Source: an uncultured Candidatus Saccharibacteria bacterium (lineage in GTDB: Bacteria; Patescibacteriota; Saccharimonadia; Saccharimonadales; Saccharimonadaceae). Taken from it: DNA of 64,000 bases. The stretch lies in contig CAMYXA010000002.1 in the NCBI GenBank assembly GCA_947302975.1, positions 26,627 to 90,626 of the forward strand, in the 5' to 3' direction. Position numbers and translations under genes: made by a program. The notes under the pieces were generated by a model. It worked only from the letters and a program-made list of their open reading frames with translations, searched no databases and was not told the origin of the DNA. Shown here piece after piece: positions 19,295 through 59,537 of this stretch. Within the stretch, counting starts at the first letter, position 1. The number at the start of each line of letters is the position of its first letter.

Positions 19295-19378
19295 ACACAC
19301 CACCCCTTTCTACGAGTTATCTACATATATTATAACATAAGATTCAAAAAAGTGCAACAGATGTGGTATAATTAAAAC

Positions 19379-20398
19379 ATGAAAACAGTATACGTCGGCA
19401 TGTCTGGAGGCGTTGATTCCTCCGTGTCTGCAGCCCTCTTGAAAGAGCAGGGTTATCATGTTGTCGGCGTCTACATGAAGAACTGGTCCAAAAATCTCCC
19501 AGGCATGAAATGCCCATGGGCCGAAGATCTCGCCGACGCTAAGCGCGTTGCCGTAAACTTAAGAATCGACTTCAAGGTTTTTGATTTTGAAAAAGAATAC
19601 AAGCAAAAAGTCGTCGACTACATGATCGAGGAATACAAGAAGGGAAACACCCCAAACCCAGACATCATGTGCAACCAAGAAATCAAGTTCAAGCTCTTTG
19701 CCGAGACCGCCTTCGAGGACGGCGCCGACCTCATCGCCACCGGGCACTACGCCAATGTCGAAGACGGCAAGCTCCTGAAAGCCAAAGACGAAAACAAGGA
19801 CCAGACCTATTTCTTATATCGCGTCACTTCTGAGGTTCTAAAACGCACCTTGTTCCCAGTCGGAAACATGCTAAAACCAGAAGTGAAAAAGCTTGCCGAA
19901 AAATTCGGGCTTGTCAATGCCCACAAACCAGAATCCATGGGTGTCTGCTTTGTTGGAGAAGCCAACATGAAGGACTTCCTCTCTGAGTTTATCGACGTGA
20001 AGCCAGGCGAAATCCGCGAACTCGAAACCGACAAAAAACTCGGCTACCACGACGGCGCCATTTTCTACACCATCGGACAGCGCCACGGCTTAAACGTCGG
20101 CGAAGGCCTGCCTTATTACGTCGCCAAAAAAGATATGGAAAAGAATATCGTCTATGTCTCCAAGAATCTAAACGAAAAGAATCTCTGGACCAAGGAAATT
20201 AAACTAAAAGATGTCTTCCTACGTGAAGAGGCTCCAAAAGAAATCGAAATCCGCGTCCGCCATCGCGCCGCGCTCATCCCAGCCACTTTTGACGGCGACA
20301 CCCTCCACCTCAAAAACGAAACCAAGCGCATAGCATCCGGCCAGTCCGTCGTCTTCTACAAAGACAACGTCTGCCTCGGCGGCGGCATTATCGAATAG
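19379..20398 (+). CDS. mnmA: tRNA-specific 2-thiouridylase MnmA
   Basis: GMSGGVDSS, PNPDIMCN, ATGHYA, KDQTYFL, ESMGVCF, GQSVVFY motifs. Confidence 0.97.
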   Translation: MKTVYVGMSGGVDSSVSAALLKEQGYHVVGVYMKNWSKNLPGMKCPWAEDLADAKRVAVNLRIDFKVFDFEKEYKQKVVDYMIEEYKKGNTPNPDIMCNQEIKFKLFAETAFEDGADLIATGHYANVEDGKLLKAKDENKDQTYFLYRVTSEVLKRTLFPVGNMLKPEVKKLAEKFGLVNAHKPESMGVCFVGEANMKDFLSEFIDVKPGEIRELETDKKLGYHDGAIFYTIGQRHGLNVGEGLPYYVAKKDMEKNIVYVSKNLNEKNLWTKEIKLKDVFLREEAPKEIEIRVRHRAALIPATFDGDTLHLKNETKRIASGQSVVFYKDNVCLGGGIIE

Positions 20399-20429
20399 AA
20401 AAACTCCCTGACCAAGGTCAGGGAGTTTT
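20399..20429. terminator. Bidirectional intrinsic terminator
   Basis: AAAACTCCCTGACC-aa-GGTCAGGGAGTTTT. Confidence 0.85.
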
Positions 20430-20449
20430 CAGAAGGAAGGTCCGGAACA

Positions 20450-20518
20450 TCATCTCTCGTACTCGAGATAGAATAATTCGTTAAATAAGTTGTACATAAG
20501 TCCAAATAATCTTTTCAT
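20450..20518 (-). CDS. Putative 22-aa peptide MKRLFGLMYNLFNELFYLEYER
   Basis: Not in the ORF track; AGGGGG-ATAAA-ATG directly after the stop of the 197-aa ORF. Confidence 0.3.
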   Translation of the reverse strand: MKRLFGLMYNLFNELFYLEYER

Positions 20519-20529
20519 TTTATCCCCCT

Positions 20530-21123
20530 TTACAGATTATAACCTTCGACTTCTGCAAGTGCTTTTTCGATCTCGACAATCTGATCGAGAAATTCAGAAT
20601 TAACGCCGATACAAAGATTGATTGCTTCGATCGTATCGTGATACCCCTGTATCTCAGACCACAAATGATCCTTCATTTTGATGAAGGTAGCCTCAGTAAA
20701 ATCATCATCAAAGCCACACTTTAGTGCGCTAATGACGCGGACGATAAGGGGCATCATCTCATGTGTTCTTTCGAGCATACGATTGACGCAATTACGAAGT
20801 TTTTCTTCGTCATCCTCTTCATCCAAGAGGCCCGGGTCCATAAAAGCATCGAAGTCTAGTGTCTTGCAGTCGTTCGTCGAAGTATCGACATCTGACGGCT
20901 TATCACTGCCACCCATGATCAAATCTCGTGGAAAAGAGGTGACAGTACAGTGCACCTCGGTACCTTCGTCGGACTCATCATCCTCGTCGTCATAATTATC
21001 GTCATCTCCAAGATCAAGACTAGCCGCCAGATCTTTGGCGCGATAATACTTAACGGCTAAGAAAAGAATAGAAAGACCCAGGACAATCACAACTACAGTA
21101 AGAACATACACAAGTGTAGTCAT
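20530..21123 (-). CDS. Acidic hypothetical protein with N-terminal TM
   Basis: SD AGGAGGAG; D/E-rich tracts. Confidence 0.7.
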   Translation of the reverse strand: MTTLVYVLTVVVIVLGLSILFLAVKYYRAKDLAASLDLGDDDNYDDEDDESDEGTEVHCTVTSFPRDLIMGGSDKPSDVDTSTNDCKTLDFDAFMDPGLLDEEDDEEKLRNCVNRMLERTHEMMPLIVRVISALKCGFDDDFTEATFIKMKDHLWSEIQGYHDTIEAINLCIGVNSEFLDQIVEIEKALAEVEGYNL

Positions 21124-21291
21124 TTATACTTCTCCTCCTTTATGAAAATGTTCCATGAACTCCTTGTAATCCCTTTCGGCATCCCGAACGATAGGATGTT
21201 TGATAACTTCAAAGATGAAAATAATAAGTATCTCAAAACCTAAAAGACCTCCAAACAACCAAAAAACCTGCTTAACTTCTTCCCAATTCAT
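21124..21291 (-). CDS. 55-aa single-TM hypothetical protein (MNWEEVKQVFWLFGGLLGFEILIIFIFEVIKHP...GGEV)
   Basis: Not in the ORF track; SD AAAAGGAGGAAGAT-ATG; its stop abuts the next ATG (TAA ATG). Confidence 0.55.
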   Translation of the reverse strand: MNWEEVKQVFWLFGGLLGFEILIIFIFEVIKHPIVRDAERDYKEFMEHFHKGGEV

Positions 21292-21443
21292 ATCTTCCTC
21301 CTTTTAAAGAACGAACTTTTTCAAGCCTACCTTTATATTATAGCACAAAATCGCGAAAAAAGCAATAGCGTCATCTGTAAAAACACCCATAAAACCCCTT
21401 ATTCGTCTCCAGATTTTCCTCAGAATATGATATAATTATCACC

Positions 21444-23399
21444 ATGAATGCAAACGAAATCCGACAAAAATTCTTAGATTTTCAAGTTAAACGTGGTCAC
21501 AAAGTCATCGCGCCAGCCCCACTTGTGCTCGAAAATGACCCAACCACCCTTTTCACCGGCTCAGGCATGCAGCCATTATTGCCATATCTTCTCGGAAAAC
21601 CACACAAAGACGGCACCCGTCTAACCGACTCCCAACCATCCCTTCGTTTGCAGGATATTGAGGATGTCGGCGACCCGCGCCACACTACGGTCTTCGAGAT
21701 GCTTGGCAACTGGTCTCTCGGCGATTATTTCAAGGAAGAACAAATTCGTAGCTTCTTTGAGTTTCTAACCAAAGAAGTTGGCTTGAATCCAGAAAAAATC
21801 TACGTCACCTGTTTCATTGGCGACGAAAAATACGGCATTCCAAAAGACGAGGAAGCCGCCCGCATCTGGCAAGAAGTCTTCAAAGAAGCTGGTATCGACG
21901 CCAAAATTGCCGAGATCGGCTCCGCTGAAAACGGCGACAAGCGTGGCATCAAACCAGGCGAACACATTTTCTTCTACGACGATCACGAGAACTGGTGGAG
22001 CCGCGGCGGTGGCATCGAAACCACCCCAATTGGCGACCCATGTGGCCCAGATTCCGAAGTTTTCTACGATTTTGGTGACGACAAACAAGATGTCGAAAAA
22101 TACGGCCTCGCCCACCCAGCTTCCGATGGCGCTCGCTTCATGGAAATCGGCAACCAAGTCTTTATGCAATATCGCCGCAAAGAAGACGGCACCTTCGAAG
22201 AACTCGAAAAGAAAAACGTCGACTTTGGTGGCGGTCTTGAACGTATCGCGGCCGCTGCAATCGACAGCTTCGATGTCTTCAAAGGCTCATTACTCAAGCC
22301 AATCATCGACAAACTCGAAGAAATCTCCGGCAAAGATTACGAATCCAACACCAGCGACATGCGCATTATCGCCGACCACATTCGTGGCGCCTACCTTCTT
22401 TCCGCCCAAGGCTTGAAACCAAGCAACAAGCAACAAGGCTACGCTCTTCGCCGCCTCATCCGCCGCGCTATCTTAAAGGCCCTTGATCTCGGCATTGCCC
22501 AAAACTTCATTAGCGAAGTTATTCCAGTTGTTGCTAAGAATTACGAATCACTTTCTGACGAAATCTTAACCACCCGCGAAGAAGCTATCGTCACTCTCGA
22601 AAAAGAGGAAAAAGTCTTCCGCGAAACCCTCTCAAAAGGTCTTCGCGAAATGCACAAAATGGTCGCGAAAGATGCCGACGGCGTCCTCACCGGCACCGAC
22701 CTCTTCAAACTCCAAGACACCTATGGCTTCCCATTTGAAATCTCCGTCGAGGAAGCTTTCCACCAGAACATTCCACTTTCAAAAGACTATCAAAAAGAAT
22801 TCGAAGAAGCCTTGAAGGAACAACGCGAACGCTCCCAAACTGCCTCAAAAGGTATGTTCAAGGGCGGCCTCGAAGATCATGGCGAAACCACCACTAAATA
22901 TCACACCGCGACCCACCTCACCCTCGCCGCACTTCAAAAACACGTCGACGAAAACATCGGTCAACGCGGCTCCAACATCACCGCCGACCGCATGCGCTTT
23001 GACTTCAACTGCGACCACAAATTGACCGACGAAGAAAAGAAAGCCGTCGAAGACCAAGTTAACGAATGGATCTCAAAAGATCTCAAAGTCGTTTTCGACG
23101 AATACGACAAAGAATATGCCAAAAACGTTTTGAAAGCTCACGGTCAATTCTGGGAAAAATATGGCGACATCGTCAAAGTCTATACCATCGCTCCGGCCAA
23201 ATATTTCGAAGAACACAAATATGAAGGCGGCAAAGCCGAAAACCCACTCGAAGCCCGCTCTTCCGAAGACGCTCCAGTCTCCGTCGAAATCTGCGGTGGC
23301 CCACACGTCGAGCACACCGGCCTCATTGGCCACTTCAAACTCGTGAAGGAAGAAGCTTCCTCCGCCGGTGTTCGCCGCATCAAAGGCGTTATAGAATAG
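21444..23399 (+). CDS. alaS: Alanyl-tRNA synthetase (short form ending at the editing domain)
   Basis: DPTTLFTGSGMQP, FEMLGNWS, GGGLER, HTATHL, EICGGPHV, GVRRI motifs. Confidence 0.97.
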   Translation: MNANEIRQKFLDFQVKRGHKVIAPAPLVLENDPTTLFTGSGMQPLLPYLLGKPHKDGTRLTDSQPSLRLQDIEDVGDPRHTTVFEMLGNWSLGDYFKEEQIRSFFEFLTKEVGLNPEKIYVTCFIGDEKYGIPKDEEAARIWQEVFKEAGIDAKIAEIGSAENGDKRGIKPGEHIFFYDDHENWWSRGGGIETTPIGDPCGPDSEVFYDFGDDKQDVEKYGLAHPASDGARFMEIGNQVFMQYRRKEDGTFEELEKKNVDFGGGLERIAAAAIDSFDVFKGSLLKPIIDKLEEISGKDYESNTSDMRIIADHIRGAYLLSAQGLKPSNKQQGYALRRLIRRAILKALDLGIAQNFISEVIPVVAKNYESLSDEILTTREEAIVTLEKEEKVFRETLSKGLREMHKMVAKDADGVLTGTDLFKLQDTYGFPFEISVEEAFHQNIPLSKDYQKEFEEALKEQRERSQTASKGMFKGGLEDHGETTTKYHTATHLTLAALQKHVDENIGQRGSNITADRMRFDFNCDHKLTDEEKKAVEDQVNEWISKDLKVVFDEYDKEYAKNVLKAHGQFWEKYGDIVKVYTIAPAKYFEEHKYEGGKAENPLEARSSEDAPVSVEICGGPHVEHTGLIGHFKLVKEEASSAGVRRIKGVIE

Positions 23400-23418
23400 T
23401 TTGTGCTATAATGTAAGC

Positions 23419-24636
23419 ATGAACACTATTCTGGCGCTAGATATTGGAACTGAATACGTAAAAGCTGTAATCGCGAAAGCCGACAAAAAAGGCTCGCTCG
23501 AGGTAATTGGCGTTGGTCGTGCCAAGCAGGCCGAAGCCAACATGTTTTCTGGTGCCATTGCCGATATTCCTGCCGTTGTCTCTACCTGTGAAAAGGCCCT
23601 TCTTGATGCTGAAGAGGAAGCTGGCGAGACCGCCAAGACCACCGTCGTTGGTATTGCTGGCGAGCTAATCAAGGGAACCACTACCACCGTCCGCTATCAT
23701 CGCGAAAACGCCAACAAACCGATCACTGATGATGAAATGAATATCATCATCAAAAAGGTCCAAGAAAAAGCTGGCGAAGCTGCCAAAAAGTCTGTCGCGC
23801 TCGAAACCGGCAACAAAAACGTCGAAATCCGTTTGATTAATTCCGCCATCGTGTCACTAACAATCGATGGCTACAAGATCTCAAACCCAATCGGCTTCAA
23901 AGGCTCCGACGTCGTCATCCAATTCTACACCGCCTTCGCGCCACTTATCCACGTTTCGGCCATCGAAAAAGTCTGCGCCGAACTCAACCTCGAACTTCTC
24001 ACCGTTGCCGTCGAACCATTCGCCGTCTGCCGCGCCTGCCTCGGTGACAATCTCGACTCTAATTTCTCTGGCATCGTCATGGACATTGGTGGCGGAACCA
24101 CCGATATCGCCGTTATCGACGATGGTGGCGTTGATGGCACCAAAATGTTCTCCATCGGCGGCCGCAGCTTCACACACCAAATCGCCAAAGGCCTAGGCGT
24201 TGATTTCGACACCGCCGAAGAATATAAAACCGATCTCGAAAACCTCGACGAACCTCTAAAGAAAAAAGTCGAAGCCGCCATCTCTAAAAACATCAAAGTT
24301 TGGATTTCCGGCATCGAAGTTGCGCTCGAAGATTTCAACATTGTCGAAGTCTTGCCGAGAAACATCTTGCTCTGTGGTGGTGGCGCCAGCCTCTCCACTC
24401 TCCAAGAATCCCTCGCTGTCTCCGACTGGTATAAAGCCTTGCCGTTCGCACGCCGCCCAATCATCAATATTATCGACGTCAACACACTTCCAGACATTCT
24501 CTACAAGACCAAAACCACCATCGATCATTCCTACGCCACCGCCCTCGGACTTCTTCGCGTCGGCGTAGATACTTTGGCCGGCTGCCCAGAAGAAGAAGGC
24601 TTGAAAGCCAAACTCTCCAAACTTTTGCAAAACTAA
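23419..24636 (+). CDS. ftsA: FtsA-like actin-fold ATPase
   Basis: LALDIGTEYVK, VMDIGGGTTD, LLCGGGA motifs; start reassigned to 23419; no adjacent ftsZ. Confidence 0.7.
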   Translation: MNTILALDIGTEYVKAVIAKADKKGSLEVIGVGRAKQAEANMFSGAIADIPAVVSTCEKALLDAEEEAGETAKTTVVGIAGELIKGTTTTVRYHRENANKPITDDEMNIIIKKVQEKAGEAAKKSVALETGNKNVEIRLINSAIVSLTIDGYKISNPIGFKGSDVVIQFYTAFAPLIHVSAIEKVCAELNLELLTVAVEPFAVCRACLGDNLDSNFSGIVMDIGGGTTDIAVIDDGGVDGTKMFSIGGRSFTHQIAKGLGVDFDTAEEYKTDLENLDEPLKKKVEAAISKNIKVWISGIEVALEDFNIVEVLPRNILLCGGGASLSTLQESLAVSDWYKALPFARRPIINIIDVNTLPDILYKTKTTIDHSYATALGLLRVGVDTLAGCPEEEGLKAKLSKLLQN

Positions 24637-25320
24637 TTATCTATGAACTTTCACCCACTGACCTTCCGGAAGGCCAGATAGTCCGTATTTCCCAAATTGA
24701 GTACGGTGGAGCTTCACCACCCTGTAGCCTAGCGCCGCGAATGTACGGCGAATTTGTCGATTTCTACCTTCAGAAAGCACGACCTTAAGCTCGTGGCGGC
24801 CACCTTTTTCATGGACGACTGTGAACTTGGAAATACCATCCTCAAGTTGCACACCAAAATCTGAAATCATTTGCTGATGAAGCGGTGCGAGCTCGCGGTC
24901 AAGCATCACCTCATAAACCTTTTCCTTATAGAACTTCGGGTGAGTCATCTCAAACGCAAAATCACCATCGTTCGTGAGGAGAATTATCCCAGAAGAATCC
25001 TTATCAAGACGCCCAACCGTCTTCAGACTCTTCATATCCTTCGGGAGAAGATCATAAATGGTCGGCGCATCGCCTTGCGCACGGCGAGAACAAACATAGC
25101 CAATCGGTTTATTAAACGCGACATAAGAAAATTCCGCTTCGAACGGAACTATACTACTATTATAGCATACTTTATCCGTTTTGTCAACTCGTGCCCCTAG
25201 AGCGGCCGGCTTATCATTGACTAAAACTTTGCCAGCAGCAATAATGTCATCCGCTTCGCGGCGTGACATTCCCAGACGTTCGGCCAAAAATTTATTGAGC
25301 CGGATTTCCTGAGACTCCAT
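24637..25320 (-). CDS. RsuA/RluB-family rRNA pseudouridine synthase
   Basis: S4 domain RLNKFLA; VGRLDKDSSG; EGRNRQIRR; start reassigned to 25320. Confidence 0.92.
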   Translation of the reverse strand: MESQEIRLNKFLAERLGMSRREADDIIAAGKVLVNDKPAALGARVDKTDKVCYNSSIVPFEAEFSYVAFNKPIGYVCSRRAQGDAPTIYDLLPKDMKSLKTVGRLDKDSSGIILLTNDGDFAFEMTHPKFYKEKVYEVMLDRELAPLHQQMISDFGVQLEDGISKFTVVHEKGGRHELKVVLSEGRNRQIRRTFAALGYRVVKLHRTQFGKYGLSGLPEGQWVKVHR

Positions 25321-25831
25321 TTCCTGGAACCCTTGTGCTGAATTGGCTTGGTGAAATGAGCGGGGCTGCGGCAGCAATCGAAGTTGGGGAAACAATTGGA
25401 TTATTGGCAGGAGCTGGTGCGCCTGGAGCAGCAGGAGCAGCTGGAGCAGCAGGAGCAGCGGCCTTGTCGCCAAGAACTTCATGAATCACGTTAACCACGT
25501 CTTCAATACCAACTTGTGATTTCACCAAATAACGGTCAGCACCGAGAGCTTCGCCACGTGCGCGCTGTTCTTCGGAGGAAAGAGCAGTCATCATCACAAC
25601 TTTGACATCTTTTAGCTCTGGGGTGGAACGAATGATATCCAGCATATCAAACCCGGAGATTTTCGGCATCATCACGTCAGACAAAATGAGATCTGGCTTT
25701 TCGCGCACAGCGATAGCTAGTGCCTCCTCGCCATCACCGGCCACCACAATCGTGTAGCCTTCGGCCGTCAGGCGAATACTGTAGATTTCTCGTAGGGCGA
25801 TATCGTCTTCTACGATCATTAATTTTGTCAT
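25292..25831 (-). CDS. Stand-alone receiver protein with Ala/Pro-rich tail
   Basis: IVEDD, LILSDVMMP, MTA, YLVK motifs; no output domain. Confidence 0.9.
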   Translation of the reverse strand: MTKLMIVEDDIALREIYSIRLTAEGYTIVVAGDGEEALAIAVREKPDLILSDVMMPKISGFDMLDIIRSTPELKDVKVVMMTALSSEEQRARGEALGADRYLVKSQVGIEDVVNVIHEVLGDKAAAPAAPAAPAAPGAPAPANNPIVSPTSIAAAAPLISPSQFSTRVPGNGVSGNPAQ

Positions 25832-27165: not shown

Positions 27166-27212
27166 CCATTATATTTTAACACAAGCTCTATAAAATGTGA
27201 TATATTTTGAAT

Positions 27213-32938: not shown

Positions 32939-32970
32939 AAAAAGAGCTGCCCTGGTGGGCAGCCTTTTTT
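32938..32970. terminator. Bidirectional intrinsic terminator
   Basis: A-tract, GCTGCCC-tggt-GGGCAGC, T-tract. Confidence 0.75.
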
Positions 32971-33739
32971 ATAAAGTACTTCTTGATTTGGCCTTGTTTC
33001 GAAGAGAAGCTTCGACAACGCTAGAAAATGCTTTTCTATACGCCTCTCCGTCAGAAGAAAAACTTGAAAGTGGTGCTTTTGAGAATGCGCGAAGCAGGAA
33101 TCTTCCAACCTTATCGGGTCGGAAATTCGCATGTTTCGGATATTCTCCAGATCCGCGAGATGCGCCAGCTGCGTAATTCGTAAGCTTAGCTGCAACATCC
33201 GGATCCACAATCTTGTCACCAAGACTATAGACCACACCGTCAACCCTGTTTTTCTTGATACCTGCGTTCGTTGATGCAGCTTTATACTGCTTTGCGATCG
33301 CATAGATAGACAAGAACCAGCCATCCGGCTTAGTTCCGCCGAAAAGAGGCCAAAACCTGTGTTTCTTGAAGGGTTTCGATATGAACATGATGACACTCAT
33401 CATCAAACTAATAACCCCCCTGAAAATGCAAACTGCGGCATTTTTCCTGACTGAGTCCACACCGAGGTATGGACAAACGTAGTAGACATCCGTGTCTTCG
33501 TCGTCCGCAAGGATATTGCCAACCAAAGCCCCAAGCGATATGCAGATCAGAACCTTCTTTTCTGCATTATCCTCACGAATTTGATTCGCAAATTCTGCTG
33601 GATCCCAATCCTCGCCTGCACGAAGATTTTCGACCGGCCATTTGCCATAATTGTCAACGATCACGTCAACTAATGGCTGATAAAACTTCTGTTCCGTCCC
33701 AGCAAGAGCGCCAGGTATCAGATAAATCTTACCATTCAT
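32969..33739 (-). CDS. ORFan, probable alpha/beta hydrolase
   Basis: YLIPGA oxyanion-like strand, CISLG elbow, SLGDKIVDP acid, PKHANF His. Confidence 0.5.
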   Translation of the reverse strand: MNGKIYLIPGALAGTEQKFYQPLVDVIVDNYGKWPVENLRAGEDWDPAEFANQIREDNAEKKVLICISLGALVGNILADDEDTDVYYVCPYLGVDSVRKNAAVCIFRGVISLMMSVIMFISKPFKKHRFWPLFGGTKPDGWFLSIYAIAKQYKAASTNAGIKKNRVDGVVYSLGDKIVDPDVAAKLTNYAAGASRGSGEYPKHANFRPDKVGRFLLRAFSKAPLSSFSSDGEAYRKAFSSVVEASLRNKAKSRSTL

Positions 33740-33845
33740 AACATTCCCTCCATTTTAATGTGCAAATTTAGTTCTACCTTATATTATATCACAAAATGCC
33801 AAAAAAATCAATAGACACCCCTGATCAGGAGGGTCGAATTCGGTA

Positions 33846-33874
33846 TTGACAAATCGACGCTTATGCTTTATTAT
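33846..33874 (+). promoter_or_regulatory. Promoter TTGACA-17-TATTAT
   Basis: Near-consensus elements at 33846-33851 and 33869-33874. Confidence 0.7.
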
Positions 33875-33880
33875 AAACAT

Positions 33881-34036
33881 AAGCTGATACGCTTCACAGG
33901 GGTTCCACTGAATTATTTAGTGGAGTGTGGAGACTTACATTAAAAACAAAAACAGCGGATTAAAACAAAACAATGTGCCCCAAGGGTGGGCGCGCATCAG
34001 CGCGAAAAAGAGACAGACGCAAGTCGTCTCTTTTTT
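33881..34036 (+). ncRNA. Candidate ~155-nt structured small RNA of unknown family
   Basis: Own promoter, closing helix, two internal hairpins, A-rich repeats, GCAA-capped terminator. Confidence 0.5.
34005..34036 (+). terminator. Intrinsic terminator with GNRA loop
   Basis: AAAAAGAGAC-a-GAC-gcaa-GTC-GTCTCTTTTTT. Confidence 0.8.
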
Positions 34037-42047: not shown

Positions 42048-42731
42048 ATGCCAAAAATCAAATTCACAATTATCACTCTGTTTCAAGAAGCCATTGAGCC
42101 GTATCTCAATGTTTCTATGATGTGGAAAGCTCAGGACAAGGGAATTGCTGAGTTTGATTTTGTTAATCTCCGCGACTTTGGTCTCGGCCCTCACAAATCC
42201 GTCGACGACACCCCTTATGGCGGCGGCGACGGCATGCTTCTGCGCTGTGAACCAGTCTATAACGCTATCGAATCCGTAAAAGAGAAAGATCCGTCCGCAA
42301 AAGTCATTCTTCCGACCCCAGTTGGAGATATCTGGAACCAAGGGCTTGCCAAGAAACTCGGCGTCGAAAGCCTCGAAGAAGGAAAGACTCTTCACTACAT
42401 CATCTTGTGCCCACATTACGAGGGTTACGACGAACGCATTCTAGACATCGTCGACTACAAAGTCTGTCTCGGCAAATTCGTTTTAACCGGCGGCGAACTT
42501 CCAGCCCTCACCATCATCGATTCCATCGTCCGCCTCATCCCAGGCGTCCTTGGCGGCGAAACCTCCGCCGAGATCGAATCTTTCTCTGATGGTGACAACC
42601 TCGAATACCCACAATACACCAAACCATACGACTTCCGCGGGAAAACCGTCCCAGATATTCTCCTCTCCGGCAACCACGGCGAAGTTGACAAATGGCGCCG
42701 AGAACACTCCAAAACTTGCAAAAATAACTAA
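42048..42731 (+). CDS. trmD: tRNA (guanine-N1)-methyltransferase
   Basis: VDDTPYGGGDGM, YEGYDER, FVLTGGELPA, EYPQYTKP, LLSGNH motifs. Confidence 0.97.
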   Translation: MPKIKFTIITLFQEAIEPYLNVSMMWKAQDKGIAEFDFVNLRDFGLGPHKSVDDTPYGGGDGMLLRCEPVYNAIESVKEKDPSAKVILPTPVGDIWNQGLAKKLGVESLEEGKTLHYIILCPHYEGYDERILDIVDYKVCLGKFVLTGGELPALTIIDSIVRLIPGVLGGETSAEIESFSDGDNLEYPQYTKPYDFRGKTVPDILLSGNHGEVDKWRREHSKTCKNN

Positions 42732-42818
42732 ATTATGATACAATTATAAGAGTAGTCACTCTAGACCTATTTTTTACGGTCCAAAAAACTTGCACATTAA
42801 CATCATGGAGGTGGGAAA

Positions 42819-43994
42819 ATGAATAATAAAAACAACCTGTGGCTTACCGTAATCGCTGGAGGAAACGGCACAAGACTGTTCCTTTTCAGCAATAAAGATC
42901 GTCCTAAGCAATTTTGCCGAATGAATGAGGATAATACTTTCATTCAGGCAACCGTCGAACGCTTCTTGCAGTTCGGCATAGATCCAAAGCACGTCATCAT
43001 TATCGTAGCGAACGAAGTCCAGCAGGACCTCGCAATCACGCAGCTGTCTGAACGCTTCAATATCCTTTCTAGCAACATTCTTAACATCGGCCCCGATCAC
43101 GGATACGCCGGTGCCAAGATTTATGCAACCAAGGTTATTGAGGAAAAAGATCCAAACGCTAAGATTATCATGACTCCCGCGGATCAGTACGTAGAAAACA
43201 ATCAGGACTTCAAGAACGCCATACTGCGCGGACTTGCAATCGCAGAGACAAACCCCGTTGTAATCGGAAAGAGAATCAACGATGCGAACGCCGCCAAGGA
43301 ACTTGGAAACATCATCTACGACAATGAAGAAAACAAGGCGGAGGCTAACGGATTTTCCATCGAGACATTCGTAGAAAAACCCGATATCGACTGGATCACC
43401 AAGACGATGCTTGAAAAATCATCAGCCTGCAACACCGGTATTTCCATCTGGAAGCCCAGTCAAATCATCAAGGATAACGATATCGACATCGGCACCGACA
43501 AGCTCATCAACGAGCTCCTTATCGAACCGAAACTCGTTGTTGGTAAATTCCCTTGGGAAGACTGCGGAACCTTTGAGGCACTCTATCGCCTGAATTCCCA
43601 GTATACTGGAGCAGACGTTGTCACCCTGAGCGATAAGGAAAACATCGTGCCTAGAGATTGCAGCAGATGTCTCATCATTTCAAGTAATTCCATCGAGCTA
43701 AACGTCAATGGCATTAAAGATGCCGCCGTCATTGCAACTATGATCGACGGCGAATATTATCTCGAAATCGCATCTTTTAATGCAACAAAGAGCGTTGCTA
43801 CGGCCGCAAAAATCTTTGAGGAAGACCCTGATATGTTCAAACAGGGCATCACTCTGGGGGGAAAGAATAATGGTTTCACTAATCCCTACGGGGATAAATT
43901 CCATGTTTGTTTCATTGGTGTCAGCGGCTGCAAAGTCGATCCGTATCTCCGCAAAAAAGGTACTCCCTGCTTCTTAGTAAGCTGTGGATTCTGA
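42819..43994 (+). CDS. Mannose-1-phosphate guanylyltransferase-like nucleotidyltransferase
   Basis: IAGGNGTRLF..S..RPKQF, PADQY, FVEKP, NTGI, WEDCGT motifs; no cupin isomerase domain. Confidence 0.75.
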   Translation: MNNKNNLWLTVIAGGNGTRLFLFSNKDRPKQFCRMNEDNTFIQATVERFLQFGIDPKHVIIIVANEVQQDLAITQLSERFNILSSNILNIGPDHGYAGAKIYATKVIEEKDPNAKIIMTPADQYVENNQDFKNAILRGLAIAETNPVVIGKRINDANAAKELGNIIYDNEENKAEANGFSIETFVEKPDIDWITKTMLEKSSACNTGISIWKPSQIIKDNDIDIGTDKLINELLIEPKLVVGKFPWEDCGTFEALYRLNSQYTGADVVTLSDKENIVPRDCSRCLIISSNSIELNVNGIKDAAVIATMIDGEYYLEIASFNATKSVATAAKIFEEDPDMFKQGITLGGKNNGFTNPYGDKFHVCFIGVSGCKVDPYLRKKGTPCFLVSCGF

Positions 43995-44009
43995 TATCAC
44001 CCTCCATGT

Positions 44010-44039
44010 ACACCCCCGCTCCTTGCGGGGGTGTTTTTT
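44010..44039 (+). terminator. Intrinsic terminator
   Basis: ACACCCCCGC-tcctt-GCGGGGGTGT-TTTTT. Confidence 0.85.
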
Positions 44040-44053
44040 GTTATAATAAAACT

Positions 44054-50783: not shown

Positions 50784-50795
50784 TTAGGAGGCAAA

Positions 50796-51386: not shown

Positions 51387-51397
51387 TTGATTTTACT

Positions 51398-51858: not shown

Positions 51859-51896
51859 TCAACCAAACCCAGATAGGTTTCTAGAGCCTATCATTA
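51828..51896 (-). ncRNA. Candidate ~70-nt antisense RNA overlapping the 3' end of the peptide ORF
   Basis: Minus-strand TGGTATAAT at 51903-51911; terminator stem 51834-42/51852-60 followed by a U6 tract. Confidence 0.45.
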
Positions 51897-52015
51897 ATGA
51901 TAATTATACCATAACTAAAATATAGCAACACATCAAATAGTAGCCAATTATTCAATACATTCCAAATATCCCTCAATATCATGTTATAATATACCTTATA
52001 ACAATAGGAGTTATA

Positions 52016-52561: not shown

Positions 52562-52562
52562 T

Positions 52563-53240: not shown

Positions 53241-53255
53241 TGATATAATAAGCTC

Positions 53256-54521
53256 ATGGATATATTTGTTGGAGTTATTGTTGGTCTATTAGTTTTAATG
53301 ACCCTTGTTACATTGCATGAGCTTGGTCATTTTATTGCCGCAAGAAGAAACGGCGTTAGAGTTCTCGAATTCGGAATCGGCTTCCCGCCGCGCGCTATCG
53401 CCTGGGTCAAAGATCCCAAAACTAAAAAATGGACCCGTCTCAAAAAGTCTGAATGGGACAAACCTCAAAAAGGTTTGATTTTTAGTTTCAACTGGCTTCC
53501 AATTGGCGGTTTCTGTCAGATGGACGGAGAATCTGCAAACGACATCAGAAAGGGAACTTTCGGCAACGCTCGCTTCTGGGCCAAAACCAAAATCCTCTTT
53601 GCCGGCGTCGCCATGAACTGGCTCACTGCCTTTATTATTTTGCTCGTTCTCTCTCTAACCGGACTTCCGAAAATGATCCCAAACCAATTCTCGGTTCAAA
53701 GTGACGAATCCGTCTTCAACCGTTCCCACGTGACCGTGACTGAAGTTTTGGACGATTCTCCAGCCAAAGCTGCCGGGTTCGAAAAGAATGACGTCATTGT
53801 TGCCGTAGCTGGCGAAGAAGTCTTTGCCTCGTCTGACGTTTCGAAGATTAATTCCGCCCACGTCGGCGAAGAAGTCGTATACACTGTTTCTCGCGCTTCT
53901 AATTGCGAATTAAAAACCCCAGAAGAAACCCCAGCCGACGGCGAAGCGAATTGCGAAAACAAAGAAGAAGAACTTCTTCTAACTGCCAAGCTCAATAACT
54001 CTGACGCAGAATATTTGCTCGGCATCACCATGTCCTCATCGCAAGAGCTCTATCGCTACACTTGGTCTGCACCAGTCGTAGCCGCCGGACTCACCGTCCA
54101 GCTCACTGGCGAAACCTTAAAAGGTGTTGGCGAACTCATCGGTAACCTCGTTTCTGGAGCCTTCAAACAGCTCAACCCAGACGATAACACCCGCGCCGAA
54201 GGCCGTGCCGCTCTAGAATCCGCCGGAGAATCCGTTTCTGGTCCAGTCGGCATCATCGGTGTCATTTTCCCAGCATTCACATCAGCCGGCGTCACCAACG
54301 TCGCCTACCTCGCCGCACTCATCTCCGTCTCCCTCGCCTGCATGAACGTTCTTCCAATCCCAGCCCTCGACGGCGGCCGCTGGCTCCTCATCGCTATTTT
54401 CAAACTCCGCAAAAAAGAACTCTCAAAAGAACTCGAAGAAAAGATCGTCTCACGCGCCTTCCTAGTTTTACTCATCTTAATCGCCCTCATCACTATTCTT
54501 GATATAACGAGATTCTTCTAA
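53256..54521 (+). CDS. rseP: Site-2 (M50) protease with PDZ domain
   Basis: HELGH, PIGGF, PDZ 'DSPAKAAG', NVLPIPALDGG motifs. Confidence 0.93.
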   Translation: MDIFVGVIVGLLVLMTLVTLHELGHFIAARRNGVRVLEFGIGFPPRAIAWVKDPKTKKWTRLKKSEWDKPQKGLIFSFNWLPIGGFCQMDGESANDIRKGTFGNARFWAKTKILFAGVAMNWLTAFIILLVLSLTGLPKMIPNQFSVQSDESVFNRSHVTVTEVLDDSPAKAAGFEKNDVIVAVAGEEVFASSDVSKINSAHVGEEVVYTVSRASNCELKTPEETPADGEANCENKEEELLLTAKLNNSDAEYLLGITMSSSQELYRYTWSAPVVAAGLTVQLTGETLKGVGELIGNLVSGAFKQLNPDDNTRAEGRAALESAGESVSGPVGIIGVIFPAFTSAGVTNVAYLAALISVSLACMNVLPIPALDGGRWLLIAIFKLRKKELSKELEEKIVSRAFLVLLILIALITILDITRFF

Positions 54522-55258
54522 TGATAAATAAGAAGCCCGCCAACAAGAAACCAACCGACAAGAAAAAAGTCGCCATCACCTGCCTTGCTTTGTCCGCCTG
54601 GACGATGGCCGTCGTATTTGGAACTCAGTTTTTGGTCGCTTATCCAATGCACTGGATTCTTGGTAACGACTTAAACACACCAGTCTGGTCCGCAATCTAC
54701 ACCGCGCTAGTTTATTTATTATCACTCATCCTTATCGCTATTTTGCCATGGAAGCTTTTCAAGAAATGGAAAACTAACAGGGAAGAGCTAGGTTTGTCTG
54801 GACTTCCAACCTGGACCGATATCGGTCTAGCGCCAATCGGCTACGCCGTCTCAATTCTTTTGGCCTACGTCCTCACCGCCGCCTTCTCGATTTTCCCATG
54901 GTTCAATGCCGCCGAAGCCCAAAACGTTGGCTTTAACAATATCGCCACCGGCTTAGACCGCGTCGTCGCGTTCATCGCGCTCGCCGTCGTGGCCCCAATC
55001 GCTGAAGAACTCATCTTTCGCGGCTGGCTCTACGGAAAACTCCGCGCCCATGTCAACATGGTTATCTCCATTATTATCGTCTCACTCCTCTTTGCCATTG
55101 CGCACTTACAGTGGAACGTCGGCGTGACCGTCTTTGCTATGTCCGTCGTAAACTGTCTACTTCGCGAGATCACCGGCACTATCTATTCCGGCACCATTCT
55201 CCACATCATCCGAAATGCCATAGCATTCTACGCCGTCTTCATCCTCGGCATCGCCTAG
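54521..55258 (+). CDS. CPBP (CAAX/Abi) intramembrane metalloprotease
   Basis: PIAEELIFRG, FAIAH, HIIRN motifs. Confidence 0.88.
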   Translation: MINKKPANKKPTDKKKVAITCLALSAWTMAVVFGTQFLVAYPMHWILGNDLNTPVWSAIYTALVYLLSLILIAILPWKLFKKWKTNREELGLSGLPTWTDIGLAPIGYAVSILLAYVLTAAFSIFPWFNAAEAQNVGFNNIATGLDRVVAFIALAVVAPIAEELIFRGWLYGKLRAHVNMVISIIIVSLLFAIAHLQWNVGVTVFAMSVVNCLLREITGTIYSGTILHIIRNAIAFYAVFILGIA

Positions 55259-55314
55259 TCTTTTTCTCTGGTTAGTCACCAAATAACCTGTAAATATGTT
55301 ATAATAATCTCATT

Positions 55315-56544
55315 ATGAGACTATCGAATTCTTTCATTAAAACCCTTCGTGATGCGCCAAAAGACGAAACCGCAAAGAGTGCTGGTTTTCTAATTCGCGC
55401 TGGTTATATTTACAAAGAAATGGCTGGAGTCTATGATTATCTTCCTCTTGGCCTAAAAGTTATCGAAAACATCAAAGGCATTGTCCGCGACGAGCTCAAC
55501 AAAATCGGCGGCCAAGAAGTCTTAATGGCTGCCCTCCAAAATCCAGAACTCTGGAAGAAAACCGATCGTTGGGACGATCAAAAAGTAGATATTTGGTTCA
55601 AAACCGAGCTTTCCGCCGGTGGGGAATTAGGTCTCGCCCCAACCCACGAAGAGCCGATCACCAACATGCTAAAGACCTACGTCAAAAGCTACAAAGATTT
55701 GCCGCTTGCCGTTTATCAATTCCAAACCAAATTCAGAAACGAACTTCGCGCCAAATCTGGCATCATGAGAACCCGCGAATTCATCATGAAAGATCTTTAT
55801 AGCTTCCATACTTCCGAAGAGGATTTGGATCGCTACTATCACGAAGTCGAAAATGCCTACGCCCGCATTTATGACCGCCTCGGCCTTGGCGACATTACCT
55901 TCGAAACCTTCGCATCCGGTGGCGTCTTCTCAAAGTATTCTCACGAATACCAAACCTTCATCCCAGTTGGCGAAGACACTGTTTACTATAACAAAGACAA
56001 ATCCGTAGTCTTGAACGAAGAAGTTTTGCAAGACGACGTATTAGAAGACCTTGGCGTCAAACGCGATGAGCTCGAAGAAACTCGTGCCGCCGAAGTTGGA
56101 AACATCTTCAAACTTAAGTTCAAATATTCTGAGCCACTTGGCCTCAAAATCTCCGACGAAAACAACGAAATCAAAACCGTTTATATGGGTTGCTACGGTA
56201 TCGGCATCTCCCGCGTTATGGGCGTGATTGCTGAGAAATTCTGCGACGACAAAGGTCTCGTCTGGCCAGAGAACATCGCTCCGTTTAAGTTTTACCTCGC
56301 TCCAATCGGCGAAAACGGCTCCAAGATTGCCGAAGAGATTTATCTCGGGAACGAAGATAAAATCCTCTTTGATGACCGCGCTCTTCGCCCAGGCGAAAAA
56401 TTCGCCGACGCTGAGCTCATGGGTATCCCATTCCGTGTTGTCATCTCCGACAAAACCCTAGCCGAGAACTCTGTTGAAATCACCAACCGCAAAACCGGCG
56501 AATCAGAACTAGTCTCAATCGAAGAATTCAAAAAGTCTATTTAG
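55315..56544 (+). CDS. proS: Prolyl-tRNA synthetase (short form)
   Basis: LAPTHEE, QTKFRNELR, RTREFIMKD, EVGNIFKL, MGCYGIG motifs. Confidence 0.96.
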   Translation: MRLSNSFIKTLRDAPKDETAKSAGFLIRAGYIYKEMAGVYDYLPLGLKVIENIKGIVRDELNKIGGQEVLMAALQNPELWKKTDRWDDQKVDIWFKTELSAGGELGLAPTHEEPITNMLKTYVKSYKDLPLAVYQFQTKFRNELRAKSGIMRTREFIMKDLYSFHTSEEDLDRYYHEVENAYARIYDRLGLGDITFETFASGGVFSKYSHEYQTFIPVGEDTVYYNKDKSVVLNEEVLQDDVLEDLGVKRDELEETRAAEVGNIFKLKFKYSEPLGLKISDENNEIKTVYMGCYGIGISRVMGVIAEKFCDDKGLVWPENIAPFKFYLAPIGENGSKIAEEIYLGNEDKILFDDRALRPGEKFADAELMGIPFRVVISDKTLAENSVEITNRKTGESELVSIEEFKKSI

Positions 56545-56607
56545 TGTTGACATAACAGATGAATTTTTGTAAACTCATTATGTTATTAAAACGTGGAGAA
56601 TACTGAT

Positions 56608-57054
56608 ATGATCAAGAAGAGTATCAGCCTTACTGCAGAAGGTAAGAAAGAATTAGAGAAAGAACTTGAACAGCTTATTGCCGAGCGCCCAGCCATTACC
56701 GAACGTATTGCCACTGCCCGTGCTTTTGGTGATTTGTCCGAGAATGAAGAATATAGCTCCGCAAGAAATGAGCAAAAGCTCGCTGAGAGTCGCATTCTAG
56801 AAATCCAAGACATTTTGAAAAACGCCAAGATTATCAAGGGTGGATCGAAATCCGCAGTTGTGCTTGGCGCAACCGTCGACATCGACTTTGGCGGCGCCAA
56901 AAAGACCTACACCGTCGTTGGTCCAACTGAAGCCAACCCACTCGAAGGCAAAATCAGCAACGAGTCCCCAATCGGCAAAGAGCTCTTAGGACACAAAACC
57001 GGCGAAAGCTTCGACTTTAACGGCAAAAAAGTTAAAATCTTAGCAATCAAATAG
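56608..57054 (+). CDS. greA: Transcription elongation factor GreA
   Basis: ARAFGDLSENEEY, ISNESPIG motifs; promoter TTGACA-17-TAAACT at 56547-56575. Confidence 0.96.
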   Translation: MIKKSISLTAEGKKELEKELEQLIAERPAITERIATARAFGDLSENEEYSSARNEQKLAESRILEIQDILKNAKIIKGGSKSAVVLGATVDIDFGGAKKTYTVVGPTEANPLEGKISNESPIGKELLGHKTGESFDFNGKKVKILAIK

Positions 57055-57064
57055 TCTTTAAGAT

Positions 57065-57100
57065 AAGCAATCATCTTTAAAAAGAGGTGATTGCTTTTTT
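57065..57100 (+). terminator. Intrinsic terminator
   Basis: AAGCAATCAT...GTGATTGCTTTTTT. Confidence 0.7.
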
Positions 57101-57129
57101 ATAGAGTTAGTTTATGGTATAATATTTTT

Positions 57130-58590
57130 ATGTTACTTGAAGATTATCGCAACGAACGTTTGAAAAAACTAGAAGAACTCAAGGCTCGTGGTATCGATCC
57201 GTACCCAGCCAAATCTTATCGCAACGCCAAAATTTCTGACATCATCAATCATTTTGATGAAAAAGAAGGTCAGGAAGTTGTTGTTGCTGGCCGCATTGTC
57301 GCCATTCGCTCGTTCGGTAAACTTGCTTTCATCAAAATCCGTGACTACTTTGGCGAAATCCAAATCTTCATGAAGGCCGACGCATCCGCCGAACCTGTTG
57401 ACACTCCTGATCTCCTCGGCATCAAAGATATTAGACTTCTTGATACTGGCGACTTCATCGAAACTAAAGGTATCGTTGGCAAATCTCAAACTGGCGAAAT
57501 CTCTATCTTCTCTAATGCCGTCAGAATTCTTACCAAATCACTTCGTCCACTTCCAGAACAATTCACCAACAAGGAAGAGCGCTATCGCCGCCGCTATGTT
57601 GATATGAACGTAAACCCAGAAGTTCGCGAGCGCCTCGTTCGCCGCAGCAAATTCTGGCAAGCCACTCGCGACTTCATGAACAAACACGGCTTCATCGAAA
57701 TTAACATTCCAGTCCTCGAGCACACCACTGGTGGTGCCGACGCTACTCCATTTGTTACTCACATTAACGCCTATGACGAAGATCTTTATCTTCGCATTTC
57801 CCACGAGCTTCCTTTAAAGCGCCTTCTTGGTGGTGGCTTTGAAAAAGTCTACGACATCGGCGTCCGCTTCCGCAACGAAGGTGTCGACGACGAGCATCTT
57901 CCAGAACATATTGCTTTTGAGTCTTACGCTGCTTACGAAAACTACGAAGACGGTATGAAACTCTACGAAGAGATGATTAAATACGTCGCCAAAGAAACCT
58001 GGGGAACCTTGGAATTCCACGTTGACGGATTCGACATCAATCTCGACTGTGAATGGCCACGCATCAAATATTCTGATCTTTTGAAAGAAAAATTCGGCGT
58101 CGACGTCTTCAATCCAGATCGCGAACAACTCATTAAGATCCTAAAAGATAACGGCCAAGAAGTAAAAGAAGAAACCACTACCAACCATCTCATCGACGAC
58201 GTCTGGAAACTCATCCGCAAAACTTCCGCTGGTCCATACTGGCTCGTCGAAGAGCCACTCGCTCTCAGCCCACTCGCCAAAGTCGTCCCAGAAAATCCAC
58301 TCGTAACTGAGCGCTTCCATCCAATCATCGCTGGAACCGAAATGGGGAACGGCTATTCAGAGCTTAACGACCCTCTAGATCAGCTCGAGCGCTTCAAAGA
58401 ACAGCAAGCCGCCCGCGACGCTGGCGACGATGAAGCCCAGATGCTTGATCAGGATTTCGTCGAGATGCTTGAGTATGGTATGCCACCAGCCTGTGGCTGG
58501 GGCAACTCCGAACGCAACTTCTGGCTTCTTGAAGGCGTCCCAGGTAGGGAAGCAGTGCCATTTCCTATCATGAAATCCAAGGAAGACTAA
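57130..58590 (+). CDS. lysS: Lysyl-tRNA synthetase class II
   Basis: RYRRRYVD, LRISHEL, FRNEG, EMGNGYSELNDP, YGMPP motifs; start reassigned to 57130. Confidence 0.97.
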   Translation: MLLEDYRNERLKKLEELKARGIDPYPAKSYRNAKISDIINHFDEKEGQEVVVAGRIVAIRSFGKLAFIKIRDYFGEIQIFMKADASAEPVDTPDLLGIKDIRLLDTGDFIETKGIVGKSQTGEISIFSNAVRILTKSLRPLPEQFTNKEERYRRRYVDMNVNPEVRERLVRRSKFWQATRDFMNKHGFIEINIPVLEHTTGGADATPFVTHINAYDEDLYLRISHELPLKRLLGGGFEKVYDIGVRFRNEGVDDEHLPEHIAFESYAAYENYEDGMKLYEEMIKYVAKETWGTLEFHVDGFDINLDCEWPRIKYSDLLKEKFGVDVFNPDREQLIKILKDNGQEVKEETTTNHLIDDVWKLIRKTSAGPYWLVEEPLALSPLAKVVPENPLVTERFHPIIAGTEMGNGYSELNDPLDQLERFKEQQAARDAGDDEAQMLDQDFVEMLEYGMPPACGWGNSERNFWLLEGVPGREAVPFPIMKSKED

Positions 58591-58595
58591 AAAAT

Positions 58596-58624
58596 AAAAA
58601 CCGCCACGATCGTGACGGTTTTTT
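58596..58624. terminator. Bidirectional intrinsic terminator
   Basis: AAAAACCG-c-CACG-at-CGTG-a-CGGTTTTTT. Confidence 0.75.
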
Positions 58625-58667
58625 GATTCGTTTTTATATCACAGCGTATTTACTGTTACATTCTTAT

Positions 58668-59429
58668 TCAGGTTTTTCTGCTTTCAAGCTTAAAATAAAG
58701 CGCATCGTCCGATATGGAAACACCGTACGACACACCTTTAAATGTGTAGTTACTGACTTTTTTATCGAGATGATGTTTTGCTCGATAAGCGTCAGCGTCA
58801 ATCATTGCCATACGTACAAAATCATCAAGATGCTTAGCAACATATTCTTCACGCCAATCCGTATCTCCATCACATTCTTCGGGCTTCAGCATGTCATAAA
58901 ACACCTTATAGCATTCCTTGCCTTTTTCATCGGTTTGAAACGATACGCGACCAACTTTCGAACGACAAAACTCTCTGACTTTTGACGAACTAAACTGATA
59001 CTTGTCCCCGATTGTCGCAAACATCTGCGGGCGTTTAGGTGATTCCAGCAGATATTGCTGCTGACGCGCCTTGGCGGCGTCATCAAGCTGAAAAACCGGG
59101 GTAAGACGAATCAGGAGAGTACTAATTGTATCTCCGTCTCGAAGACTAAGAAAAGCCTTCTTGAATGCGGTGCTGTCGAACCTACAGTGATGATATTTTT
59201 CATATACCTCCCAAAAGACTACACTCATGATCGAATGTCCTTCTTTATCGACGTAAAGATTCTTATCCTTGCAAAACGCAATCACAGATTCAGCGTTCCG
59301 AAGCGCCTTGTAGGTGTCACCCTCAAATGACCCAAGTTCGAAGAACTTCTCATCCGAGCGGCAATAGAACGACGTTCCAGACAAACTTTTTCCAATCGGA
59401 CGACCACTGCCAAAACAATATTCCTTCAT
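58668..59429 (-). CDS. ORFan hypothetical protein (253 aa)
   Basis: SD AAAGGAGGG; own promoter TTGACT-17-TATAAT (59481-59509). Confidence 0.7.
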   Translation of the reverse strand: MKEYCFGSGRPIGKSLSGTSFYCRSDEKFFELGSFEGDTYKALRNAESVIAFCKDKNLYVDKEGHSIMSVVFWEVYEKYHHCRFDSTAFKKAFLSLRDGDTISTLLIRLTPVFQLDDAAKARQQQYLLESPKRPQMFATIGDKYQFSSSKVREFCRSKVGRVSFQTDEKGKECYKVFYDMLKPEECDGDTDWREEYVAKHLDDFVRMAMIDADAYRAKHHLDKKVSNYTFKGVSYGVSISDDALYFKLESRKT

Positions 59430-59537
59430 AATAACATCCCTCCTTTTTAAGGTACAAAAAAAACGAATCTATCTCTTATTATTATACTATATTTTGGGTA
59501 TTTAGTCAAACTAAGCACTATGTTATAATAAACTTGT

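Follow-up and report, generated by a model that had tools for sequence, protein, structure and literature searches.

Look-alike promoters of five accessory transcription units in a Saccharibacteria genome are probably a house style rather than the mark of a mobile cassette

Five loci in the genome of an uncultured Candidatus Saccharibacteria bacterium raise the question of why genes for unrelated proteins should begin with promoters and leaders that look alike. The loci, called units A to E here, lie in a 64,000-nucleotide (nt) stretch of DNA (the window; contig C2:26627-90626) of the genome G000, which is 673 kb long in 18 contigs, 91% complete and about 46% guanine plus cytosine (GC), and which has bovine rumen-type samples among its closest metagenome relatives. 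An initial annotation of the window had described all five as ORFan genes with a common promoter and leader design, and had suggested a common source or dispersal mechanism, or a shared regulon. The sequences that it quoted were all found again on the same strand and at the same coordinates. The five loci are probably independent accessory transcription units that share a house-style promoter and an initiation region led by a Shine-Dalgarno (SD) sequence, and a dedicated cassette mechanism is not supported.

Each locus is a complete stand-alone unit consisting of a predicted sigma-70 promoter, an unstructured leader, a strong SD, an open reading frame (ORF) and a terminator (Table 1). The promoter spacer is 17 bp long in all five units and all five have a GGAGG or GGGG SD. 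This part of the proposed common design stands, but most of the promoter likeness is generic. The -10 box is preceded by TG in 4/5 units; A, B, C and D carry TGnTAnAAT, and unit E (TAGTATAAT) shows no TG, but has a full TTGACT -35 box. Transcription would start 6-8 nt 3' of these -10 boxes, and the predicted promoters are conserved in relatives above the level of the coding sequence (CDS). Folding of the five leaders against shuffled sequence gave no significant hairpin (z -1.2 to +0.8). An intrinsic terminator ends each of the five loci. As the initial annotation had stated, three units end at or near core-gene terminators, namely A, C and E, whose bidirectional hairpins are held in common with the convergent gene. 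The terminator of unit D is its own, and a long ORF start of recG at 43907 overlaps D and crosses this terminator (window 43907-44048). Since the terminator lies there and the RecG family alignment starts at residue 48, the long start is spurious and the real start is near 44050.

The neighbours of the units are mnmA, alaS, obg, trmD, recG, a tRNA-synt_2 synthetase gene and uvrB. The promoter of A on the minus strand and that of mnmA on the plus strand overlap back to back, and the mnmA -35 box (TTCAAA) is the reverse complement of a T-run within the spacer of the A promoter. No Pfam family matches A, B1, B2, C or E, no NCBIfam or PHROG family matches A, B2, C or E, and C and E have no sequence match to solved structures. 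Unit D encodes an NTP_transferase, a mannose-1-phosphate guanylyltransferase-like protein according to the family search, and with homologues in 7/45 congeners (32-40% identity) it falls outside the ORFan description. Antisense orientation to core neighbours had also been proposed as a trait of these genes. Across the genome, 17 single accessory genes run in the same direction as the core genes on both sides, against 3 that are antisense; therefore, it is not a trait of the class.

Whole-genome comparisons were made with G000 and two congeners, G004 and G007, which are about 70-78% identical to G000 at the nucleotide level in conserved core genes. Each ORF was classed as core or accessory by its tblastn presence in the other two genomes; both the gene calls and the classes are the authors' own and crude. 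In this comparison A, B2, D and E are absent from both congeners, and C has one homologue with 39% identity. The 180 accessory ORFs of G000 form 94 runs, 52 of which are single genes. Their GC content is 44.0% versus 46.4% for core genes (2.4 points lower), and the GC content of accessory genes follows the level of each host genome.

Accessory genes as a class use a start design that is statistically unlike that of core genes, being SD-led where core genes are leaderless. A start was counted as strictly SD-led when a GGAGG-type SD lies 4-10 nt 5' of it, and as strictly leaderless when a near-consensus -10 box ends 6-8 nt before ATG or GTG. The number of SD-led to leaderless starts in G000 is 67:16 for accessory and 41:110 for core genes (odds ratio (OR) 11, p=2e-15). 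The corresponding numbers are 48:23 and 50:111 in G004 (OR 4.6, p=3e-7), and 34:19 and 46:110 in G007 (OR 4.3, p=1.5e-5). Looser start definitions result in an OR of 2.7-3.6. The mix of leaderless and SD-led starts within one genome is already known; the "group C" genomes of GeneMarkS-2 have a Pribnow box about 10 nt before leaderless first genes and a ribosome-binding site (RBS) at the others (PMC6028130). G000 resembles these genomes in having many Pribnow-led first genes that lack an SD, and an RBS elsewhere. In the group C scheme, however, the SD-led genes are operon-internal or leadered first genes, whereas in G000 the split follows core or accessory status. No description of a leaderless/SD split aligned with core versus accessory status was found in the literature searched. 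The 16S rRNA 3' end is GGATTACCTCCTTTCTTGAG (G000 C3 ~76274; G004:C6 ~232586), and the anti-SD is intact though most core genes have no SD. This end reads ATTA here and ATCA in many bacteria.

The likeness of the promoters was compared with a frequency matrix of 127 TTG-N17-TAnAAT sites in G000. The consensus of these sites has a T two bases 5' of TTG, A/T-rich spacer ends, T-5, T-3, G-2 and an A-rich tail. The TnTTG, the A/T-rich spacer, the T-5/T-3/G-2 and the A-rich tail of the units are the same generic features. The caveat of the initial annotation, that part of the similarity is sigma-70 consensus, is thus borne out, and the generic consensus explains most of the promoter likeness. The likeness ends at about -37 and +5. 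A single Sigma70_r2 gene was found in the 91%-complete genome; an alternative sigma factor was rejected on this ground, and the single sigma-70 family gene accounts for the uniformity of the promoters. The A promoter does not stand out (rank ~18/119). The B and C promoters match at 28/45 positions outside the boxes, which is the 95th percentile of the all-pairs maximum in column shuffles, a null that retains the generic consensus. A TAG near the start site occurs in 18/94 cases versus 14/94 in a control window and is no general promoter feature, and it was rejected as a class marker. The T-rich spacer was rejected too, because core genes have it just as often in each of G000, G004 and G007.

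Units B and C belong to a small promoter clique together with C2-21322, C16-3623 and C3-62582, the last three being outside the window; the A promoter is outside this clique. The proteins encoded behind the clique promoters are unrelated; therefore, duplication is not the cause of the likeness, and paralogy was rejected. One clique-type promoter is followed by a gene for a 1131-aa (amino acid) accessory protein (contig C3 62616-66011) of DVSNWDTSNVTDMSYMF-type repeats, which, read by eye, are presumably BspA-like leucine-rich repeats, and then by three more accessory genes. A position weight matrix (PWM) of the flanks outside the boxes was built from four promoters of the clique, with the generic promoters as the background for scoring. 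It does not favour accessory genes in G004 (p=0.11) or G007 (p=0.52), where core genes are driven by similar TTGAyT-TTTTAG...TGTGnTATAAT promoters. The flank motif, which the initial annotation had offered as a means of recognizing cassettes, therefore fails as a cassette marker. A promoter moving together with its gene was also rejected, since the C homologue in G004 is at another locus and has a TTGACA/A-rich promoter.

Inside the slots that hold the units, the regulatory signals are conserved and the ORFs are not. In close relatives promoters, leaders and terminators retain 86-92% identity, whereas the ORF cores have fallen to about 50%, have given way to unrelated genes or are missing. A metagenome locus (L104) with a 98% identical MnmA has the same units in the same slots. 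Protein identity there is 43% for A, 68% for B1, 44% for B2 and 85% for p74. At the nucleotide level the A promoter is 91% and the A leader with its SD 86% identical, while the middle of the A ORF is 50% identical with indels. The B promoter (89%, the changes being four central spacer bases), the B leader (92%) and the N-terminal membrane anchor of B2 (86%) are likewise kept, and the C-terminal two thirds of B2 are 47% identical with 78 gap columns. The 75 nt before alaS are 99% identical. The diverged regions have indels and changes at all four bases, not at adenines only. In the mnmA terminator hairpin (20400-20432), the differences from L104 come in pairs and leave the stem intact (CTCCCTGACC..GGTCAGGGAG versus ATCCCCGACC..GGCCGGGGAG).

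The C promoter is identical at 36/38 bases in an 86% orthologue (L092) whose CDS is 83% identical, and the stretch just upstream is diverged. On the downstream-gene side of this promoter (window 33840-33930), G000 and L092 agree at each of the first 68 aligned bases and have diverged over the next 45 nt. The signals of unit E are identical in its 92% orthologue loci, and the promoter is identical in L088-L091.

A comparison of filled and empty sites had been proposed as a check on the cassette idea. The slots vary and their flanks are syntenic; in the empty copy the promoter stays and the boundary lies 4-5 nt past the -10 box. Among two relatives with 88% MnmA, one has a clean piece of ~510 bp, located between the stop of p400 and the promoter of mnmA, which the other lacks. 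The filled copy contains a terminator hairpin homologous to that of G000, an unrelated 157-aa membrane ORF and an SD, and the minus-strand promoter TTGACT-17-TGCTATAAT stays in the empty copy. Since this promoter is kept in the empty copy and overlaps the mnmA promoter, it is part of the locus and not of the piece that varies. The B slot of these two relatives differs right up to the extended -10 box of alaS, which alone is conserved there; the -35 box of alaS appears to be dispensable. The limits of variation are marked by the promoter at p400/mnmA and by the alaS extended -10; therefore, the needs of the neighbouring genes set the borders of the slots.

The distribution among congeners supports the description of the units as autonomous accessory units of one or two genes, placed at hypervariable sites with conserved core genes on either side. 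A and B2 were each found in 0/45 congeners. C is present in 1/24 other genomes of the genus and 0/16 genomes of other families, and forms five clusters among 5.8 billion proteins. Three D homologue loci were examined; they have no trmD/recG match within ~1.5 kb, and an EF-Tu-like C-terminus precedes two of them. E has two homologue clusters only, at 92% and 43% identity. The 92% homologues (L088-L091) are in the same aspS-uvrB slot. The 43% homologue adjoins a minus-strand gene of 481 aa that has no family annotation and whose size and strand fit the synthetase. A, B, C and E all have positional homologues in the same slots of close relatives.

The genes p400 and mnmA are adjacent in 9/10 congeners, and G000 has p74 and A between them. 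The gap between mnmA and alaS measures anything from 133 nt to 9 kb among 10 congeners, and in 60 metagenome loci it is 9-2921 nt long. By sequence motif, with no family search, the proteins of this slot are presumably HD-domain-, phosphoribosyltransferase-, methyltransferase- and HAD-like proteins and small secreted proteins. These motifs appear to point to different kinds of protein, and for this reason the slot genes were rejected as over-diverged positional orthologues across species. A small lysine-rich tail-anchored protein (MAQAKKK...LLCANAVMMIV) is encoded directly 5' of alaS on the opposite strand in G004, G043 and G021, but not in G000 (gap coordinates L008 3888-4190, L010 1855-2151 and L011 52-243). 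The junctions 5' of trmD, between trmD and recG, after recG and between aspS and uvrB hold different accessory genes in G000, G004 and G007. The accessory genes at the trmD, recG and aspS-uvrB junctions are mostly SD-led and stand between leaderless core genes.

Table 1. Positions of the parts of units A to E, and of the divergent mnmA promoter, in the window (promoters and proteins as predicted)
Feature	Position	Strand	Details
Unit A promoter	19329..19357	-	-35 TTGCAC 19352-19357, 17-bp spacer, extended -10 TGTTATAAT 19329-19337
Unit A leader to terminator	18947..19322	-	SD GGGGTGGTG 19298-19306
Unit A ORF	18956-19303	-	115 aa, predicted membrane protein
Unit A terminator hairpin	18947-18966	-	bidirectional
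mnmA promoter	19343-19372	+	leaderless, divergent; TTCAAA-18-TATAAT
Unit B promoter	21337..21365	-	-35 TTGCTT 21360-21365, T-rich 17-bp spacer, extended -10 TGCTATAAT 21337-21345
Unit B leader and ORFs	20530..21330	-	SD AAAAGGAGGA 21296-21305
Unit B1 ORF	21124-21291	-	55 aa, transmembrane (TM)
Unit B2 ORF	20530-21123	-	197 aa, N-terminal TM anchor and acidic domain
Unit C promoter	33783..33811	-	TTGATT-17-TGATATAAT
Unit C leader to terminator	32945..33777	-	box TTGCACATTAAAA 33753-33765, SD GGAGGG 33746-33751
Unit C ORF	32969-33739	-	256 aa
Unit C terminator	32945-32964	-	bidirectional, common with obg
Unit D promoter	42716..42744	+	TTGCAA-17-TGATACAAT
Unit D leader to terminator	42745..44034	+	box TTGCACATTAAC 42790-42801, SD GGAGGTGGG 42807-42815
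Unit D ORF	42819-43994	+	391 aa, NTP_transferase
Unit D terminator	44010-44034	+	own terminator, 10-bp GC-rich stem
Unit E promoter	59481..59509	-	TTGACT-17-TATAAT
Unit E leader to terminator	58596..59480	-	box TTGTACCTTAAAAA 59444-59457, SD GGAGGG 59438-59443
Unit E ORF	58668-59429	-	253 aa
Unit E terminator	58596-58623	-	bidirectional, common with tRNA synthetase gene

The leaders have a further element in common. The initial annotation had noticed TTGCACATTAA 5' of the SD in the leaders of C and D; this sequence has exactly 2 copies in the 673-kb genome, and both are there. It belongs to a degenerate box that lies directly 5' of the SD, reads G[CT]AC[ACT][TA]T and continues into an A-run; the leader of unit E has this box too (TTGTACCTTAAAAA). 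The heptamer CACATTA is found 6 times upstream of 103 GGAGG-led starts versus 0.21 expected. The box is kept in homologues of the C and D families that have 35-41% protein identity and are at other loci (G046 GCACATTAAAAAGGAGG, L094 GCACATTAAAAT, G006 GCACTTTT). In the C orthologue of L092, GCACATT is changed to GTACTTT, which is within the degenerate consensus, and the adjacent bases of the leader have diverged. About 10-12 genes per genome carry the box, and 3 in G007. Extended SD pairing or a T7-epsilon-like enhancer was rejected because the 16S tail (GGAUUACCUCCUUUCUUGAG) has no complement of the box beyond chance 7-mers.

Two accessory leaders that flank trmD in G007 (C3 ~238071 and ~239200) have the 14-mer ACATTAAAAGCTAG in common; it includes the leader box, and in one of these leaders it is about 60 nt from the SD. 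In G000, contig C16 3687-4531 encodes tandem paralogous accessory genes of 131 and 140 aa that start with M[YF]SPTI..W.LYF. Both are SD-led, and one of them has a GTACTTTAAAAAGGAGG leader.

Several results weigh against a house style as the full explanation. The promoter pairs with at least 26/45 matches outside the boxes number 21 versus 1.7 expected, and the promoters of B, C, C2-21322 and C16-3623 are more alike than the independent-column null permits. In G000 itself, the flank PWM ranks accessory above core promoters (p=0.0008). The box is also biased among SD-led genes: in G000, 10/12 genes with it are accessory versus 70/199 without it (OR 9.2), and in G004, 9/11 versus 74/229 (OR 9.4). 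The motif was defined post hoc in G000 and G004 was not used for defining it; pooled over G004 and G007, the accessory bias of the box has p=0.0003. The tetramer GTAG, at most 16 nt after the -10 box, is found in 18/129 accessory and 3/125 core leadered promoters, and in G004 and G007 alone in 10/77 and 2/81 (p=0.016). This effect is weak, and the tetramer is not kept in the A promoter of a close relative. A purely generic consensus does not predict the accessory enrichment of the box and of GTAG. The variable boundary just after the -10 box in the one presence/absence pair belongs with these points.

The leader box may be a plain initiation enhancer or mark a small regulon. As a regulon, GYACNTT(A)AAA, perhaps together with GTAG, would be a binding site for a protein or RNA, through which some of the accessory genes would be co-regulated in translation or stability throughout the genus. 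The excess of CACATTA upstream of GGAGG, the accessory bias among SD-led genes in G000 and independently in G004, the retention of the box in distant homologues of C and D at other loci, and its change within the consensus in the C orthologue while the neighbouring bases diverge are all consistent with such a site. However, few genes carry the box, it has no palindrome or stable structure and no 16S rRNA complementarity beyond the SD, and no candidate regulator was identified. Its fixed place beside the SD would be just as expected of a plain A/U-rich initiation enhancer, and the motif was defined after viewing the G000 data. A regulon is rather unlikely. The opposite position, that nothing is specific to these genes beyond sigma-70 and SD consensus and the initial annotation's choice of look-alikes, is suggested by the generic matrix of 127 sites, the equal frequency of the T-rich spacer at core genes, the lack of a PWM bias in G007, the unexceptional A promoter and the TAG that is no general feature. 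It does not account for the SD/leaderless contrast with OR 4-11 in three genomes or for the replicated bias of the leader box, and is very unlikely.

A mobile cassette class would have a dedicated vehicle, whether integron-like, phage moron-like or linked to a retroelement, and the common promoter and leader would be its signature. The hypervariable slots, the clean ~510-bp presence/absence, the D homologues outside the trmD-recG slot in the three other species examined, and the moron-like promoter-ORF-terminator anatomy point in this direction. The initial annotation had recommended looking for a linked recombinase or reverse transcriptase. The 91%-complete genome yielded no reverse transcriptase (PF00078), no resolvase or serine recombinase and no rve transposase. 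The sole tyrosine recombinase (PF00589) is an Xer-like gene on another contig (C1) and is conserved in both sister genomes. A PHROG search of 10 accessory proteins gave no match, and a phage origin was rejected on the lack of PHROG matches. An all-against-all blastn-short comparison of the five units and their flanks found no common boundary repeats; the only match was that between the B and C promoters (36 nt, 86%). In the absence of mobility genes and common boundary repeats, a dedicated cassette mechanism is not supported. The likeness is moreover confined to the RNA polymerase footprint, the promoter stays behind in the empty site, the positional homologues of A, B, C and E are in the same slots, the C homologue of G004 has another promoter flavour, and accessory GC tracks the host genome. 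The proposed common source or dispersal mechanism is thus not supported, and a mobile cassette class is highly improbable. A version that has no recombinase is quite unlikely; here the promoter-leader and the terminator at either side of a slot would act as homology arms, natural transformation would exchange ORFs, hyperdivergent or unrelated, by way of them, and the leader box would provide a common post-transcriptional control distinct from the leaderless core.

Phage morons, as described by Hendrix and Juhala, are autonomous promoter-ORF-terminator units between conserved phage genes. The units resemble them in having their own promoter and terminator, in standing between conserved genes to which they are unrelated, and in their patchy presence. 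However, the units are chromosomal with housekeeping neighbours and are not in a phage or prophage, they have no PHROG match, their GC tracks the host, and many of them are positional homologues that have long been in residence and have diverged where they stand. Integron cassettes lack promoters and bear attC sites; they form arrays beside intI that are read from the Pc promoter. They are also single-gene units of unrelated function and variable presence, but the units here have their own promoters, are dispersed and have no common repeats, and there is no integron integrase. No attC-type inverted repeat common to the 3' ends of the five units was found by blastn-short, and no adjacent IntI with a cassette array is present. 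The combination expected of a diversity-generating retroelement, a reverse transcriptase and a template repeat near the target, was also not found. ORFan islets between core genes are similar: they too are small, narrowly distributed and quickly turned over at fixed junctions, and many of their proteins are predicted to be membrane-bound or secreted. What the units add is a leader box biased towards accessory genes, and a quantified contrast between the regulatory frame and an ORF core of ~50% identity. Promoters with an extended -10 box (TRTGn) are known from Gram-positive bacteria; the units have the same TnTGnTATAAT and 17-bp spacer, and there is no difference of substance.

In the preferred reading, that of independent units with a house-style promoter, a genome with one sigma factor would have its strong promoters converge on TnTTGayt, a T- or A-rich proximal spacer, TnTGnTATAAT and an A-rich tail. 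Leadered genes would need the same initiation region, an A-rich tract and GGAGG, often after a GYACNTT box. The likeness at each locus would then be kept by purifying selection on function and not by common descent or a mobile element. The units, with unstructured leaders of 20-70 nt, occupy hypervariable slots between syntenic and mostly leaderless housekeeping genes in a genome of ~0.7 Mb. The ORFs would turn over when DNA is taken up and recombines by homology in the conserved flanks, with occasional illegitimate events. Uptake and flank recombination are a plausible route of exchange because ComEC is present in G000. The SD-led design would be what a gene needs for autonomous expression wherever it has landed.

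Saccharibacteria, like other Patescibacteria, live as ultra-small epibionts and have very few regulators. The main upshot for this genome is a correction: the look-alike promoters are probably the house style of a one-sigma organism and not the signature of a mobile element. If housekeeping mRNAs are leaderless and the fast-turning accessory genes use a classical module of promoter, leader and SD, gene finders and start-site models for these genomes would need two grammars, and the SD-led set would be a cheap sequence marker of the flexible genome in metagenome bins. The conserved frames around hyperdivergent ORFs suggest strong diversifying pressure or frequent allele exchange at fixed sites. 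Many of the accessory proteins are predicted to be membrane or secreted proteins, so they may be related to contact with the host.

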